Virus record (IMG/VR): IMGVR_UViG_3300017971_000065
Strand: one strand, 5' to 3'
DNA length: 53,122 nucleotides
DNA from: a virus
Each line of letters begins with the position of its first letter. Position 1 is the stretch's first letter. The notes beneath the pieces were generated by a model. That model was not told the DNA's origin, ran no database searches, and was given only the letters and a program-made list of their open reading frames with translations. Of this stretch, positions 3,828 through 53,122 are shown in pieces. Both the position numbers and the translations under genes were made by a program.

Positions 3828-4622
3828 ATGGCTAAAAAGACAAAGACGCAGAAAAAGATTGAGGCCGAGATGAAACCTGGCAAGGTGTCATTCAAGACAA
3901 CTTGCGGTCAGTTGAAAGCATTGACATCTCTCACAATGATCATCACAAAGAAAGCGGTGCTCGAATTCACACCGTCTGGACTTGAGGTGAGTGTTGTAGA
4001 TGAGAAGGTAACTCATGCTGGACACATCACCCTTACTGCCGAAGGAATGGAAGGTTACGGACTCGGAAAGAACAAGACCGAATTCCTTTGTGGTATCGAT
4101 TTGAAACATCTGCATGAATTTCTCGGCAATCTCAATGTGAAAGATGAGGTAGAGTGTGACTTCGACGAGGAAAAGATGAGGGCAACATTCAAGTCTGGCA
4201 ACCTGTCCAGAACGGTAGAACTGTTGTTCTCATACGATGACTGGAAAACATGGAGAAAGACCGACCTGAAAATACAGTATCAACACGAGTTCAAGGACAT
4301 CGACAGCAAGGACATACTGATCGGTATGAAGGGAGTCGAGGATGTCAATGATGACGAGGTCATCTTTGAGTCAAACAAGAGTGGCTTCTTGATAATGGCA
4401 GAGGATAGCGGTGACGACATCGAAGTTCCTTTCGGAAAGAAGGGAAAGACAAAGCGGATCAAGTCGAAGTTCAGAGTCGGCCCAGTCAAGGCGATTGTGA
4501 AAGAGATGAACGGAAAAGTGACAGTATCGATGGGCGAACACATCCCAATCGAGTTCTCATGGTTTCCAGCAGAGAACATGGGTGCAACCTTCATGGTGGC
4601 CCCATTGACAAAGGGTGATTGA
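3828..4622 (+). CDS. pcn: PCNA-like sliding clamp (paralogue 2, divergent)
   Basis: 264 aa, the typical PCNA length. GAGGAGC SD upstream. Two-domain pattern, and the C-terminus ATFMVAPLTKGD parallels the LAPRIE end of paralogue 1. Confidence 0.7.
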   Translation: MAKKTKTQKKIEAEMKPGKVSFKTTCGQLKALTSLTMIITKKAVLEFTPSGLEVSVVDEKVTHAGHITLTAEGMEGYGLGKNKTEFLCGIDLKHLHEFLGNLNVKDEVECDFDEEKMRATFKSGNLSRTVELLFSYDDWKTWRKTDLKIQYQHEFKDIDSKDILIGMKGVEDVNDDEVIFESNKSGFLIMAEDSGDDIEVPFGKKGKTKRIKSKFRVGPVKAIVKEMNGKVTVSMGEHIPIEFSWFPAENMGATFMVAPLTKGD

Positions 4623-5600: not shown

Positions 5601-5896
5601 CGATATGTCCAGAATGTCTTGATGGACGGGACAACTACGGAAAGAAAGGCTATTGTGAGATATGCAACAAGCGGATAACGAGAAAGATGAGGGTGAGGCC
5701 ACCTCTGTTCGGCAGATTCCACAAGCACAAGTGGGAACTCATAGCCTCTGGCAATATCAAGACACCTCAAGGCCATTTCACTATCGGCCTGTTCAAATGT
5801 AAAAAATGTCAGGCGAGGGATTGGAACTTGACCGGGTTCATAGAACAGGTAGAGAACTTCGAGAGGGCCCACAGCATAGCACAGAGCAAACGATAG
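5597..5896 (+). CDS. Zinc-ribbon protein (99 aa)
   Basis: ATGA overlap at 5597-5600; MTICPECLDG...CEICNK...CKKCQ. Confidence 0.55.
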   Translation: MTICPECLDGRDNYGKKGYCEICNKRITRKMRVRPPLFGRFHKHKWELIASGNIKTPQGHFTIGLFKCKKCQARDWNLTGFIEQVENFERAHSIAQSKR

Positions 5897-5971
5897 GGCT
5901 TTATCTCGGAACGAGACAGACTCTTGAACCTTTTCAGAAAACCCCTATCAGAAACACCCTTTAAGGCACTT

Positions 5972-7030
5972 TTACGACGATGAGGGCAATAGGAGGGCAA
6001 CCTCTGTTCCGAAAACAGGAATGTCTTTCTCTATTCTGGTCGATATAGAAAATCCCTTTCCAAACCGTATGTCAATGTCTTGGGCTCTATGGAGTCCAGA
6101 CACTATATTTTTTGAATTTTGGATTTCGACAATCGTGAGGCCAGGTACAGCGTCTATCATTTCAAGAGCCGTAATCTCCGTATTGATTGTTTTGAACTTG
6201 TTCTCCTCAACTTCTACTCTGGCTTTCTCATAACATTCGGCTGCACTCAACAGAGAGTCATCATAGATCGGATTGCCAGCAAATGTCCCATCGACAGCCA
6301 TTCTATGTGCTGAAGTGTATGTGGCTCTGACACCATCTTTACCAATGACAGTCTGCTTATTGATCACACCATAGGTCTTTGCCTTCGGTTCTCCTTTTAT
6401 GAGATTGTCACCACCAGTCAGAGTGAACCATGAATTTGCCTCTACAAGTTCAGGTTCTTTTCTGAAGAACAGCTTGTCGCCTTCCTCATAGAGAAAGTAG
6501 TACAACGGCCTCTTACCAAACTCTGAATCGTCATAAGCCATATCACGAAGTTGCTTTATGGCTGAATAGACAATTATTCCACGACCATATCTGAAATCAT
6601 CTGGTACAAAAACAGATGGATTTGTTCCATTGAATCGTGTAGTGAATGAGATGTCAAGATTGTCGATAAGTGAATATATGGCCTGTGAGACTTCAAGACC
6701 ATCCAGATTACTGTATTCATCTATTATGACAGAGTCCTTATTAGCTGAATAGAGCCGACCATGAAGTGCCAGTTGTTTTGTCCTCTCTCCCAATTCAGAT
6801 GTCACGAAACCAGTGAATGTTGGCTTGTCTGGAAGTTCATCAAGCCCGAGATAAATCTTTATGACATCGAGAGATGAGAAGTACTCGAACAATCGGCCAT
6901 TTGGATTTGGATAGACTAGTGAAGCTGTCCAGATTTCTCTCTGTTTCTTTATGGTTCCAGAGTTAGGGTTATCGAAGCCACTATCATTCACGGTGACTTC
7001 GATCTTGGGTTTTCTCAATAATCGTACCAT
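5972..7030 (-). CDS. Putative tail tip / baseplate hub protein (last gene of the tail module)
   Basis: 352 aa, second gene downstream of the tape measure; assignment by position only. Confidence 0.45.
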   Translation of the reverse strand: MVRLLRKPKIEVTVNDSGFDNPNSGTIKKQREIWTASLVYPNPNGRLFEYFSSLDVIKIYLGLDELPDKPTFTGFVTSELGERTKQLALHGRLYSANKDSVIIDEYSNLDGLEVSQAIYSLIDNLDISFTTRFNGTNPSVFVPDDFRYGRGIIVYSAIKQLRDMAYDDSEFGKRPLYYFLYEEGDKLFFRKEPELVEANSWFTLTGGDNLIKGEPKAKTYGVINKQTVIGKDGVRATYTSAHRMAVDGTFAGNPIYDDSLLSAAECYEKARVEVEENKFKTINTEITALEMIDAVPGLTIVEIQNSKNIVSGLHRAQDIDIRFGKGFSISTRIEKDIPVFGTEVALLLPSSS

Positions 7031-49109: not shown

Positions 49110-49613
49110 ATGTCAGAGTATATATCACCAGACGCAGACAAGTTACTGGCACTCGTCAAGAAAGTTGGTGGTGACAGGAATAGATGTAACCTTCCTATCA
49201 AGTTCGCAAATGTCGAGGATAAGGCCAGATGTTCGATATGCGTCTATAAAAGGTCGATACCAAACAACACTCATATCCAATGTGCGTATGACTGGTTGAA
49301 GGGTCTTGAGATGGGGAAGGTCAATATAATTCCACTTGGCAGTTCATCTGGAATAGGTCAGGGATTGTATATGTTTCCAGTCCTATATGACCCAATCTGG
49401 ATGATGATTAAGTGTCAGGCGTTCAACACTGTCATGGATGAACAGATGACATTAGATGGCAGAAAAGACGCTATCGTTCCTATGATGGCAGTATTCCAAC
49501 TCATAACGTGCTATTCATTGAAATCAAAGTCAGGAGGTATAGATAATGAAGGAACAGGAGAAGAAACCAAAGAAGTTGTCGAAACTTCAGAAGCAGGAAC
49601 AGAAGTTGATTGA
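49110..49613 (+). CDS. Hypothetical Cys-rich protein, paralogue of 43289..43723
   Basis: Shared sequence blocks (see 43289..43723). Confidence 0.55.
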   Translation: MSEYISPDADKLLALVKKVGGDRNRCNLPIKFANVEDKARCSICVYKRSIPNNTHIQCAYDWLKGLEMGKVNIIPLGSSSGIGQGLYMFPVLYDPIWMMIKCQAFNTVMDEQMTLDGRKDAIVPMMAVFQLITCYSLKSKSGGIDNEGTGEETKEVVETSEAGTEVD

Positions 49614-50104: not shown

Positions 50105-50309
50105 AAGCCGTGTATGGTATCAGAGATACAAATCACTTGCGGAACTGCTCAAGAAAGGAAACTGTGAGAACCCGGTTGAAGTCCTGAAGCAAGTGGACAA
50201 GACGATAAACGATGCCAGAGGATACGGATATGACCATGTTGCGTGTTCGGCCTGGGAATCGCTACAACAAGTCGTCGAGGACATGGGATGGGAATGGAAA
50301 GACAATTAG
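50049..50309 (+). CDS. Hypothetical protein (86 aa)
   Basis: GGTGATGATAATG start context. Confidence 0.45.
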   Translation: MHKKIPDEFKSKKELDKIRSRVWYQRYKSLAELLKKGNCENPVEVLKQVDKTINDARGYGYDHVACSAWESLQQVVEDMGWEWKDN

Positions 50310-50698
50310 AACCTGTCCCAAAAATCCTCTATCATTGCACCAGACTTGACAAGGTCGATACGATACTGAAGGAAGGTCTGAAGGTCAATACACCATTGAG
50401 TCCTGTCAACAAGAGAGTTTACAACAAGAAGGGCGTATATCTATCAACAGAGATGTTTGGATGGATGTATTGGGCAACTGACGATCACACACATAGAGGA
50501 GCTGTAATCACAATCAATGTTGAAGGTCTGGAACTCATTGAGGACAGTGACCTTCTGGTAATCAGCGAGGCAGACGGAGAGGTAAAGAACAGAAATCTCA
50601 TGGACTACATTTGTCCTAACGATATTGAACCAGAGAGAATAATTGCTGTGTCCAGAGAGCAGGATGACAATAGTTTCGTAGAGGAGAGGATAAGATGA
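50294..50698 (+). CDS. ADP-ribosyltransferase-fold protein resembling the NAD-binding C-lobe of RNA 2-prime-phosphotransferase Tpt1/KptA
   Basis: PKILYHCT..VDTILKEGL...GVYLS...HRGAVITINV parallels the E. coli KptA segment PQFLYHGT..LDEIKKQGL...YVHLS...HGSPVILTV. Confidence 0.5.
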   Translation: MERQLEPVPKILYHCTRLDKVDTILKEGLKVNTPLSPVNKRVYNKKGVYLSTEMFGWMYWATDDHTHRGAVITINVEGLELIEDSDLLVISEADGEVKNRNLMDYICPNDIEPERIIAVSREQDDNSFVEERIR

Positions 50699-50949: not shown

Positions 50950-51041
50950 TCCAGCAGGAGCGAAACGCTTATATAGGCACAAATCTATCACCATTCGGAC
51001 ATGAAGGGATATAAACCTACATGACCGTATAAGGTGATGTG

Positions 51042-52064
51042 ATGAAACAGAAATATGAGTCATACAATATGACACAGCGACTTCTCGACCAGATTAAAGT
51101 TATCAACGGTGTTGTTGAGTCCTATGCCAAACAGGGCTATAAATTGACATTGAGGCAACTGTATTACCAGTTGGTTTCCAGAGGAATAATCCCAAACAAA
51201 GACACCGAATACAAGAAACTATCAGATTTACTCGTAAAGGCGAGGATGTCTGGTCTTGTCGATTGGGACGCGATAGAGGACAGGACAAGGGTTCCGAAGC
51301 TCGATTACTCAGTTGACGACATTCCAGATGCCATTGACGATACCATCAGTCAGTACAAGTTAGAACGATTACAAGACCAGAAAGTGTATATCGAAGTCTG
51401 GTGCGAGAAGGACGCATTGAGCAACATCCTTCGGAGAATGACCAACAAATTCCATGTCAGGTTGATGATAAACAAAGGATACTCAAGTGCAAGTGCAATG
51501 TATCGTGCGGCCCAAAGGTTCAGGAGACACGGAACAGGAAAGAAAAAGATACTTCTGTATCTTGGTGACCATGACCCTTCGGGACTCGACATGATAAGGG
51601 ACATAGGCGATAGATTGAATACATTCGGCGTAAGACTGGACACACCAGACGGTTATCCGATTCACTTGGGTATTACAAGAGAACAGGTCGAGGAATACGA
51701 ACCGCCTGAAAATCCAGCAAAGATTACTGACCCACGAGCCGAGTGGTACATCGAAGAACATGGAGAAAGTTCATGGGAAGTCGATGCTCTCGAACCATCA
51801 GTCCTAAACGAGTTGATCGAGAACGAGATATTCGAGTGGATTGATGAGGACAGGTTCAGGAACAAAGTCAAGCAAGAGAACGTTGACAAGTTGAAACTTG
51901 AAAATCTCAAGGACTTGATCGATGACCTCGATGTAAATATCGAAGTGTCATGTGTGAACTGTTCTGAACAAGTCCAGGCCGATGACGATGATACTATATA
52001 CGACATGGATGATGACAAATGGTTCTGTGGTAATGAGTGTCACGATGAATACAATGCCGAGTAA
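51042..52064 (+). CDS. Topoisomerase VI subunit A / Spo11-like protein (mini-A type: 5Y-CAP plus Toprim) with C-terminal zinc finger
   Basis: TLRQLYYQL (catalytic-Tyr motif, compare RDIYY), VWCEKDAL (Toprim Glu), LGDHDPSGLDM (Toprim DxD). GGTGATGTGATG start context. Confidence 0.7.
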   Translation: MKQKYESYNMTQRLLDQIKVINGVVESYAKQGYKLTLRQLYYQLVSRGIIPNKDTEYKKLSDLLVKARMSGLVDWDAIEDRTRVPKLDYSVDDIPDAIDDTISQYKLERLQDQKVYIEVWCEKDALSNILRRMTNKFHVRLMINKGYSSASAMYRAAQRFRRHGTGKKKILLYLGDHDPSGLDMIRDIGDRLNTFGVRLDTPDGYPIHLGITREQVEEYEPPENPAKITDPRAEWYIEEHGESSWEVDALEPSVLNELIENEIFEWIDEDRFRNKVKQENVDKLKLENLKDLIDDLDVNIEVSCVNCSEQVQADDDDTIYDMDDDKWFCGNECHDEYNAE

Positions 52065-52084: not shown

Positions 52085-52235
52085 GGGTCTGTGGCTCAGT
52101 TAGGCAGAGCGTCGGGCTTTTAAGGTCATGTGGCGAGGTTCACTATCTCCGTTCCAAGCTGAATGATGAGAAACTGATTGACCCACATGATTTGGAGATA
52201 CCCGATGGTCGCAGGTTCAAATCCTGCCAGACTCG
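52085..52235 (+). tRNA. tRNA-Lys (anticodon UUU) with a 77-nt intron at position 37/38 (52123-52199)
   Basis: Hand fold: acceptor GGGTCTG/CAGACTC, D arm GCTC/GAGC, anticodon stem TCGGG/CCCGA, loop CTTTTAA, T arm GCAGG-TTCAAAT-CCTGC. No encoded CCA. Confidence 0.85.
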
Positions 52236-52260: not shown

Positions 52261-52397
52261 AGCGAGGTAGGGTAGTCTGGTAATCCCAATGGGCTCATGA
52301 GTCGGATGTGAAGTTTCTGCCCTGATCCTCCACTGATGACACCAGTCACCATGATTGAGAAACCCATTAATCTGTGGTTCGAATCCACACCTCGCTA
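52261..52397 (+). tRNA. Initiator-like tRNA-Met (anticodon CAU) with a 62-nt intron (52300-52361) in a canonical bulge-helix-bulge context
   Basis: A1:U72. Anticodon stem ATGGG/CCCAT gives three G:C pairs at 29-31:39-41. T arm TGTGG-TTCGAAT-CCACA. Central 4-bp helix CTCA/TGAG flanked by 3-nt bulges TGA and AAA. Confidence 0.8.
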
Positions 52398-52399
52398 TC

Positions 52400-52557
52400 G
52401 GGTAACACCGACACATGGCAGGTAGCATGAAGTCCGGTCTATCTGAAGTCGCCGAATGCGTGTACTGGTGGCTATCGGGCGTGATGCCACATCTTCTTTG
52501 CTGGCTGGCATTAGAAACTCCAACAGAGCACGATACTACGGTTTGTCGGTGTTATCC
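52400..52557 (+). ncRNA. Unclassified structured element: 14-bp long-range helix enclosing 130 nt
   Basis: GGGTAACACCGACA (52400-13) pairs with TGTCGGTGTTATCC (52544-57), one G:U. An inner hairpin GTGGC/GCCAC lies at 52468-52490. Confidence 0.35.
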
Positions 52558-52561
52558 ATAT

Positions 52562-52666
52562 CCGTCGATGATGAGTGCGACCAGAGTTGATCCATCAGAT
52601 GCTTGAGAAAAGGGACTGCTGCACTGCCCTGTTGGGAGATGACATAGTTCCTCTAAACTGAGACGG
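52562..52666 (+). ncRNA. Box C/D sRNA candidate
   Basis: Terminal stem CCGTC/GACGG, C box ATGATGA (52568-74), 12-nt spacer, TTGA (52587-90), AGATGA (52637-42), D box CTGA (52658-61) abutting the stem. Confidence 0.4.
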
Positions 52667-52694
52667 ATAATCATTCGCATATGGATGTGATGTG

Positions 52695-53122
52695 ATGGCT
52701 GTAAAGAAAAAGCAAGATAAACTGGCCAAAGAGCCAGCAAGTGCCAATTTCAAGGCAAGGATTGAGTGCAGTCTGCTTCGTGGAATTGCGTCAAGTATTT
52801 CCATGTTGACAGATGAGGCGAAGTTCAAGATTGGCAAGAAAAAGTGGGTTATACAGGTCGTTGATCCAGCACACATTGCCATGCTTGAATTGGAGATTGA
52901 TGTCAGCAACTTCGAGGATTATATCTGCAAGAAAGAAGGTGTCGTAGGAGTTGACATAGACAAATTGCATGACGCAATCAAGTACGTCAAGGACAGGGAC
53001 ATTGTCAGGATTGAAACCGACATTCTGAAAGTGACAAGAGAGAAAGAAGGTAAGGACGTTGTCGTGAACATCGACAGGATAAAGATTGACGATGGCCTAT
53101 GTTCAAGACGTTTCAACCAACC
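52695..53122 (+). CDS. pcn: PCNA sliding clamp (paralogue 1), N-terminal part; runs off the window end and continues at position 1/124
   Basis: GGATGTGATGTGATG start context. MAVKKKQDKL...FKARIECSLLRGIASSISMLTDEAKFKIGKKKWVIQVVDPAHIAMLELEID is PCNA N-domain-like. Not in the ORF track because no stop lies within the window. Confidence 0.85.
   Translation, partial: MAVKKKQDKLAKEPASANFKARIECSLLRGIASSISMLTDEAKFKIGKKKWVIQVVDPAHIAMLELEIDVSNFEDYICKKEGVVGVDIDKLHDAIKYVKDRDIVRIETDILKVTREKEGKDVVVNIDRIKIDDGLCSRRFNQ
53000..53122. repeat. Terminal direct repeat, copy 2 (identical to 1-123)
   Basis: Same 123-nt string as 1-123; the repeat extends to the window edge. Confidence 0.95.

Follow-up and report, generated by a model that had tools for sequence, protein, structure and literature searches.

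The DNA stretch of 53,122 nucleotides analyzed here, to whose full length we refer as the window, carries the tRNA-Lys(UUU) gene of an apparently archaeal tailed virus, interrupted by an intron of 77 nt. With a probability of about 85%, we consider this to be a functional viral gene with an archaeal-type intron located one nucleotide 3′ of the anticodon, whose transcript would be spliced by the host, aminoacylated and used in translation. The intron belongs to a set of bulge-helix-bulge (BHB) introns that are gained and lost by tRNA genes within this viral lineage.

The gene occupies positions 52085–52235 of the plus strand. Its 5′ exon (52085–52122, nt 1–37) contains the anticodon TTT at 52119–52121, and its 3′ exon (52200–52235, nt 38–73) ends with a discriminator G, does not encode CCA and contributes to a G2·U71 wobble pair; both were delineated by sequence inspection, Rfam and ARAGORN with intron search. 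The intron between them (52123–52199) is found at the canonical position 37/38. It had been claimed in the first-pass annotation that a full cloverleaf can only be drawn after removal of this segment, and this holds: taking out 52123–52199 yields a 74-nt cloverleaf with the anticodon UUU and four intact stems, in which U8, A14, G18G19, A21, U33, G53-U54-U55-C56, A58, C61 and the G15:C48 Levitt pair are present both by inspection and in the ARAGORN model. The Rfam tRNA family RF00005 (gathering score 29) matches exactly 52085–52235 with 55.2 bits (E = 3e-9 for the whole window) and aligns over its full length (model positions 1–71), the anticodon loop being extended by an insertion of 78 nt. 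With its intron search, ARAGORN calls a tRNA-Lys(ttt) with a 77-nt intron after CUUUUA, and placing the intron at 38/39 instead of 37/38 gives the same mature sequence. The proposed identity, intron length and intron position are thereby borne out by both programs. In its default, bacterial-style mode without intron search, ARAGORN reports no tRNA gene in the whole window. The predicted exon–exon junction reads GGGCTTTTA|ACCCGATGG (also written GGGCTTTTA|ACCCGATGGTC), and the predicted junction of a circularized intron ...TTTGGAGAT|AGGTCATGTGG. Lysine codons are the top codon family of the virus (72 per 1000), with AAG as its commonest single codon.

In archaeal introns at position 37/38, nucleotides 32–35 are paired with a stretch of four nucleotides that ends two positions before the 3′ end of the intron; one bulge is formed by nucleotides 36 and 37 and the first nucleotide of the intron, and the other by the last two intron nucleotides and nucleotide 38. 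The junctions of the tRNA-Lys gene follow this scheme, as judged by sequence inspection, constrained folds, shuffles and covariation. The central helix H pairs C32, U33, U34 and U35 (52117–52120) with GGAG (52194–52197) in the four base pairs C32-G52197, U33-A52196, U34·G52195 and U35·G52194, two of which are G·U. It is bordered by a 5′ bulge U-A|A (52121–52123) and a 3′ bulge A-U|A (52198–52200), each of 3 nt, the latter with the splice site after 52199. The flanking helices are the 5-bp anticodon stem h and an outer helix h′ of 10–11 bp, which pairs 52124–52133 with 52183–52193 in the minimum free energy (MFE) fold as well as in constrained folds. Both pairings that had been read from the letters, CTTT (52117–52120) with GGAG and GTCATG (52125–52130) with CATGAT (52186–52191), are found in the sequence at these positions.

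The exact register of the 5′ bulge is ambiguous. In the strict register with two 3-nt bulges, G52124·U52193 and G52125·U52192 are paired and U52191 is bulged out (-25.0 kcal/mol), whereas a rival register that pairs A52123 with U52193 and leaves a 2-nt 5′ bulge reaches -29.8 kcal/mol and is favored by 4.8 kcal/mol; folding without constraints gives an MFE of -31.4 kcal/mol. Both registers imply identical splice positions relative to the central helix. The motif had been described as a relaxed BHB; the BHB stands, and it is closer to canonical than to relaxed. One register has two 3-nt bulges around a 4-bp helix with the splice sites after the second bulge nucleotide, and the preferred register differs in its 2-nt 5′ bulge. 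When the intron was shuffled and the positions were kept fixed, 106 of 20000 sequences gave a complete four-pair central helix together with two or more base pairs of h′, and the tRNA-Lys BHB is more than chance.

A second interrupted tRNA gene, which the first-pass annotation did not mention, starts 25 nt downstream of tRNA-Lys. It is an initiator-like tRNA(CAU) (52261–52397, plus strand) with a 62-nt intron (52300–52361), detected by Rfam (48 bits), ARAGORN with intron search, and a pair list and fold; like tRNA-Lys, it is visible to ARAGORN only when the intron search is switched on. It features A1-U72, G11-C24 and a GGG/CCC anticodon stem (G29–31:C39–41), which we take to be initiator marks in archaeal tRNAs. 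Its BHB has four Watson-Crick pairs between CUCA (52294–52297) and UGAG (52356–52359), bulges U-G|A and A-A|A and an outer helix of 4 bp, and was matched by only 5 of 20000 shuffles. The spliced anticodon loop is predicted to read CUCAUGA, i.e. with G37, and the predicted exon junction is GGGCTCATG|ACCCATTAA. The intron is laid out like a small box C/D RNA, with CUGA (52322–52325) and UGAUGA (52334–52339) separated by 8 nt, and a degenerate C-like GGAUGU and D-like AUGA at its ends across spacers of 12 and 11 nt; the corresponding introns of three relatives described below (L069, L077 and L295) do not share this layout.

Positions 1–123 of the window are repeated exactly at 53000–53122, so that the genome is complete, either circular or terminally redundant, with a size of approximately 52,999 bp. 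Downstream of the tRNAs, a gene for the sliding clamp PCNA (plus strand; Pfam PCNA_N and PCNA_C) crosses the genome junction: it starts at 52705, runs to 53122 and, because of the repeat, continues at 124–583. It is followed by a radical SAM gene (640–1554), which also occurs at or near that position in three relatives (L072, L073, L074), and a second gene of the PCNA family is found at 3828–4622 (NCBIfam PRK01115 subfamily, 6e-18); L073 likewise has two. The virus further encodes a large terminase (TerL; phrog_2, 1.5e-23), a Sak4-like ATPase and several domains that are typical of archaea. Capsid and portal proteins were not identified by profile, and nucleotide comparison revealed no similar phage isolate, the terminase being at most 29% identical to that of any. 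The exact same virus is present in several public assemblies.

The nearest cellular relatives of the viral PCNA (34–36% identity) come from Methanomassiliicoccales and other Thermoplasmata. A search with viral PCNA motifs in GTDB, with one genome per species, gave 71 loci, nearly all from Thermoplasmatota and mostly from Methanomassiliicoccales; the remainder belong to a few metagenome-assembled genomes (MAGs) labelled only Methanobacteriota or ‘methanogenic archaeon’ and to one Halobacteriales MAG. The first-pass annotation had presumed an archaeal virus as carrier, and TerL, the PCNA_N/PCNA_C clamp, the second clamp and the archaeal PCNA relatives together mark it, at the level of predicted genes, as an archaeal tailed virus (Caudoviricetes). 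Judged from the similarity of one gene family, PCNA, its hosts are probably Methanomassiliicoccales-like archaea; no CRISPR-spacer link was found, and a search with TerL in GTDB genomes returned no provirus. In 0.5 Mb of the MAG genomes recovered with the PCNA motifs, we found tRNA-Tyr and tRNA-Phe genes with introns of 27–39 nt, which suggests that the likely host lineage splices tRNAs.

As relatives, we considered the contigs that encode the closest viral PCNAs. They share a locus in which a topoisomerase-like gene is followed by tRNA(CAU), a non-coding RNA and PCNA. The topoisomerase-like gene serves as the synteny anchor; in the window, it is found at 51039–52064 on the plus strand (phrog_6247, ‘DNA topoisomerase’), and the same gene of 341–344 residues precedes the tRNA in L069, L073 and L076. 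Used as a synteny query in IMG/VR, it yielded 62 mostly phage-like loci and no intron-containing tRNAs at the locus, and searches of IMG/VR with PCNA, both as a single sequence and as an alignment, indicated that the lineage is essentially absent there. Every relative examined retains at this locus a tRNA(CAU) whose 1:72 pair is weak (A-U or U-A); the spliced loop would have G37 in the window and L069 and A37 in the remaining relatives.

This tRNA(CAU) is interrupted in some relatives and uninterrupted in others. Ordered by PCNA identity to the window, for which the values stem from two different alignment methods, it has an intron of 75 nt in the closest relative, L069 (64–65%), of 48 nt in L295 (47–50%) and of 84 nt in L077 (38%), and no intron in L072, L073/L074 and L076 (47–53%). 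The exons of the interrupted L295 gene and the uninterrupted L076 gene are 90% identical, and L076 matches the spliced form of L295 across the junction. The orthologous viral tRNA(CAU) genes thus display a precise presence/absence polymorphism of the predicted intron.

By contrast with tRNA(CAU), the tRNA-Lys gene was seen in the window genome only and is absent from all relatives examined, including L069, so that there is no conservation evidence for this gene itself. It lies between tRNA(CAU) and a conserved TCGGCAAC that comes after the stop codon of the upstream gene. An exact 21-mer of its anticodon arm was found in IMG/VR only in an intronless tRNA-Lys, which is part of a multi-tRNA cluster on two viral contigs of 100 kb.

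The splice motif can nevertheless be compared across the five viral introns, i.e. the two of the window and those of L069, L077 and L295. Their junctions were aligned without gaps over the anticodon stem, nucleotides 32–37, the first 5 and last 10 nucleotides of the intron, and nucleotides 38–43. Pairs of the hBHBh′ architecture are formed in 95.4% of the cells, compared with 26–43% when the 3′ partners are slid by 1–3 columns. In nine of the 13 pairs, both partners have changed, and the observed covariation score is reached by none of the shuffles. The inner strand of the BHB follows the loop that it faces: it is GGAG opposite CUUU in tRNA-Lys and UGAG opposite CUCA in three genes; in L295, GGAG opposes CUCA, leaving three of the four central pairs.

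Upstream of tRNA(CAU), L073 (5701–5738), L076 (2157–2193) and L295 (400–437) share an AATAA(A)TG motif, a covarying hairpin (GUCAC...GUGAC) and an A(A/T)ATCTTAA directly before nucleotide 1 of the tRNA. Of this element, which may serve as a promoter or as a signal for processing, only TCTTAAC is left in L069, and the window has CCTTTACCTTTAT before tRNA-Lys.

Could the tRNA-Lys gene be dead, either broken by an insertion or decaying after its uptake from a host, and not be spliced into a working tRNA? Its occurrence in a single genome, its absence from the site in L069, the two G·U pairs of the central helix and the ambiguous register at the 5′ bulge would all fit such a fate. However, none of the tRNA-defining nucleotides is mutated, the four stems are intact, the insertion sits exactly at 37/38 and its inner BHB strand is complementary to the gene's own anticodon loop, and the neighboring tRNA as well as three relatives keep the same architecture under covariation. 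We therefore consider a dead gene quite improbable. Integration into tRNA genes is common among archaeal viruses (PMC8651126, PMC4090602), which raises the thought that the interrupted gene may be a recombination or integration feature, such as an attP-like tRNA fragment, or else may harbor a self-splicing intron of bacterial type. But both tRNA genes are complete rather than fragments, no integrase family was matched among the ORFs scanned, and the size of 77 nt is far below that of group I and II introns, which would need more than 200 nt and a ribozyme core; Rfam gave no intron family at E ≤ 10. The completeness of the gene and the size of the intron effectively refute both variants.

Greater weight, though still that of an unlikely alternative, may be given to the idea that the intron of tRNA-Lys, of tRNA(CAU) or of both encodes a functional small RNA that is freed by splicing, for example an L7Ae-binding RNA of box C/D type or a stable circular RNA, comparable to the Haloferax tRNA-Trp intron. 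The ATGATGA (52163–52169) and the two CTGA motifs (52159–52162 and 52174–52177) that had been noticed in the Lys intron are all in place and form the string CUGA-A-UGAUGA-GAAA-CUGA at 52159–52177; the two boxes of the tRNA(CAU) intron would make a plausible C′/D′ K-loop; and a separate, canonical-looking box C/D RNA 170 nt downstream gives the impression that the virus uses k-turn RNAs. On the other hand, D′ and C′ of the Lys intron are only 1 nt apart and C and D only 4 nt, so that no guide spacer, K-loop or C-stem fits. The L069 intron, which is the most similar one, has only degenerate versions of the three motifs (CUUGA, GUGUGA, CUGU), and the putative guides have no complement among the viral tRNAs. 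In Rfam, the Lys intron matched no family at E ≤ 10 except for SNORD73 at chance level (17 bits, E = 7.4). The earlier doubt about a guide-RNA spacing was hence justified, and we reject a box C/D guide role for the Lys intron on the spacing and the non-conservation of the motifs.

If the tRNA-Lys gene is functional, as we favor, its maturation would proceed along a standard archaeal route. There is no oligo-T stretch between tRNA-Lys and the neighboring RNA genes, and an AT-rich AATACAAT is found about 33 nt upstream of tRNA-Lys. The tRNA would be transcribed together with tRNA(CAU) and the downstream non-coding RNAs, and the ends of its precursor would be trimmed by RNase P and RNase Z of the host. 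The junctions would fold as hBHBh′, with the anticodon stem, the 4 bp of CUUU/GGAG between two 3-nt bulges and an outer helix of about 10 bp. The host endonuclease EndA would then cut after 52122 and after 52199, the host ligase RtcB would join the exons and probably circularize the intron, and the CCA-adding enzyme of the host would finish the 3′ end. The likely benefit of the mature tRNA-Lys would be decoding of AAA and AAG, the codon family that the virus uses most. In about 50 viral ORFs scanned with Pfam, NCBIfam and PHROGs, with small ORFs partly covered, we found no EndA, RtcB or RNA ligase. Splicing should therefore depend on the host, in line with what the first-pass annotation had presumed. 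The Lys intron itself is most simply seen as a tolerated passenger, which is cheap where the host already splices tRNAs.

Not far upstream of the tRNAs, a 151-residue ORF (50243–50698) has a sub-threshold match to the PARP catalytic domain (22.6 bits; cut-off 26.7) and a pattern LYHCT...GL...VYLS that recalls enzymes of the ADP-ribosyltransferase fold. We considered it as a Tpt1/KptA-like splicing factor and rejected this assignment, given that the PARP match is below threshold and that nothing was found in PDB or PHROGs.

Where did the Lys intron come from? In global alignments, it resembles the tRNA(CAU) intron of L069 (z = 5.2, with none of 1000 shuffles reaching the score), and the resemblance persists in the interior of the two introns without the BHB-constrained ends (z = 4.6; 2 of 2000 shuffles). 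No other pair of introns is significant, not even the two that interrupt the orthologous tRNA(CAU) genes in the window and in L069. As a control, the comparison was slid along both strands of the whole genome, where 16 of 106,092 windows, in about three places, reached the score of the true pair. When the window was searched with the L069 intron and the relatives with the Lys intron, neither blastn nor nhmmer recovered the other intron, so that the case for homology stands on the global-alignment statistics, and we grade it as suggestive. A tentative, and on balance doubtful, scenario is that BHB introns are mobile in this virus lineage: the Lys intron would be a copy from the tRNA(CAU) of a sister virus, with UGAG re-fitted to GGAG, and tRNA(CAU) orthologs would gain and lose introns precisely.

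Two further structured RNAs were observed next to the tRNAs. RNA ‘X’ is a conserved non-coding RNA of about 160 nt between tRNA(CAU) and PCNA (52400–52557), with counterparts in L072 (~5784–5950), L073 (~5811–5980), L076 (~2266–2445), L295 (~557–735) and L297 (~80–239). A covarying closing helix of about 11–17 bp appears in every MFE fold, 19 of the 36 pairs in the alifold consensus show compensatory changes, and the segments GCAUGAA..UCC, AGUCG, GGCGUG and GGUUUG are invariant. Rfam gave no match at E ≤ 10, and a gapped pattern retrieved no true matches from IMG/VR. A role as a minimal RNase P RNA was considered for a remembered resemblance only (GAAGUCCGG) and was rejected, as it finds no support in Rfam. 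An element of 163 nt downstream of the tRNA(CAU) of L077 (1865–2027) resembles the start of RNA ‘X’ in its 5′ part; it has a 7-bp acceptor-like stem (GGGCAGG/CCUGCCC) followed by ACCA, and a T-arm-like hairpin (loop UGCAAAU) before the stem, and is not called as a tRNA by ARAGORN or Rfam.

The other RNA, at 52560–52668 (L069 1897–2002), is box C/D-like. Its perfect C box GAUGAUGA (52567–52574) and its D box CUGA (52658–52661) lie within a terminal stem of 7 bp (AUCCGUC/GACGGAU), and the RNA is kept in L069, including the 9 nt UCCUCUAAA that adjoin the D box. Its length of about 105 nt is on the high side for archaeal sRNAs, and its C′/D′ boxes are only degenerate. No target was found among the viral RNAs: an 8-bp match made tRNA-Lys a candidate, which we reject because the guide segment is conserved in L069, a virus that has no tRNA-Lys at the locus. 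A 15-mer of this RNA had only chance matches in IMG/VR and a metagenome collection. To our knowledge, no virus of archaea has been reported to encode a box C/D RNA.

The viral introns have several counterparts in cells and viruses. Cellular archaeal introns at 37/38, which are processed by EndA and RtcB, share the position, the 4-bp helix between 3-nt bulges and the flanking helices, and are cleaved after the second bulge nucleotide on each strand. The viral introns differ in being virus-encoded and longer than the 27–39 nt in the Thermoplasmata MAG fragments, and the Lys helix has two G·U pairs. In Haloferax volcanii, the intron of pre-tRNA-Trp is a box C/D guide for Cm34/Um39. The Lys intron resembles it in its position, its similar size and its UGAUGA and CUGA motifs, but its spacing bars guide duplexes, no complementarity to its own exons was found and its motifs are not conserved. 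The tRNA endonuclease of eukaryotes measures from the mature domain and does not require a BHB in the same way. Intron-containing tRNA genes are also reported from giant eukaryotic viruses (e.g. PMC3673656, PMC9894930); they parallel the present case in that viral tRNAs need the protein-based splicing machinery of the host, but the hosts and the endonuclease are eukaryotic. In Thermoproteales, similar introns interrupt tRNAs that differ in identity (Fujishima et al., 2010; reviewed in PMC4090602). This intron transposition resembles our case in the similarity across tRNA identities and the patchy distribution among close relatives; unlike there, the similarity between the introns of the viral tRNA-Lys and the sister tRNA(CAU) is only suggestive, all positions are canonical, and the carriers are viruses and not Crenarchaeota.

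The closest precedent is the tailed archaeal virus HGTV-1 (NC_021328), where positions 49226–49328 are annotated as ‘tRNA Ala (tgc) + Intron’ and ARAGORN finds an intron of 31 nt in the anticodon loop; according to a paper from 2026, one tRNA gene of this virus has an intron (PMC13532342). As this intron of tRNA-Ala(UGC) is already annotated in GenBank, the present case is not a first. It is the sole precedent that we found; the searchable literature yielded nothing further on interrupted tRNA genes in viruses of archaea, which agrees with the initial impression that they are rarely noted. The two viruses are otherwise quite different. HGTV-1 is a haloarchaeal myovirus of 144 kb with approximately 34–36 tRNAs, one of which has an intron, and has RNA-repair genes of its own, encoding RtcB, Rnl2-type ligases and a CCA-adding enzyme (PMC8651126). 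The present virus has 53 kb and a different host lineage, both of its two tRNAs have long introns (62 and 77 nt), no RNA-repair or splicing genes were detected, and introns are present or absent among its close relatives.

The phenomenon thus has a precedent and its mechanism is standard; worth following are the gain, loss and possible transfer of introns at the level of a lineage, and the conserved RNAs beside the tRNAs. Standard phage annotation would miss such tRNA genes, and since default ARAGORN finds no tRNA here, intron-containing tRNAs of archaeal viruses are probably under-counted. Once recognized, an intron-containing tRNA may serve as a cheap marker for the archaeal host of an uncultured tailed virus. 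For two parts of its translation, the tRNA for its most used codons and an initiator-like tRNA, the virus apparently leans on splicing and ligation by its host. Snapshots of how tRNA introns are gained and lost have been called for in reviews on their evolution (PMC4033280), and a tRNA gene that is interrupted in some close relatives and uninterrupted in others, with a precise junction, is such a snapshot; an intron of similar sequence may, in addition, sit in a different tRNA. If this is true, the intron moved between tRNA genes of different identity and its inner strand was re-fitted to the new loop, and archaeal viruses would constitute a natural record of tRNA intron transposition as well as possible vehicles for introns between tRNA genes and hosts.
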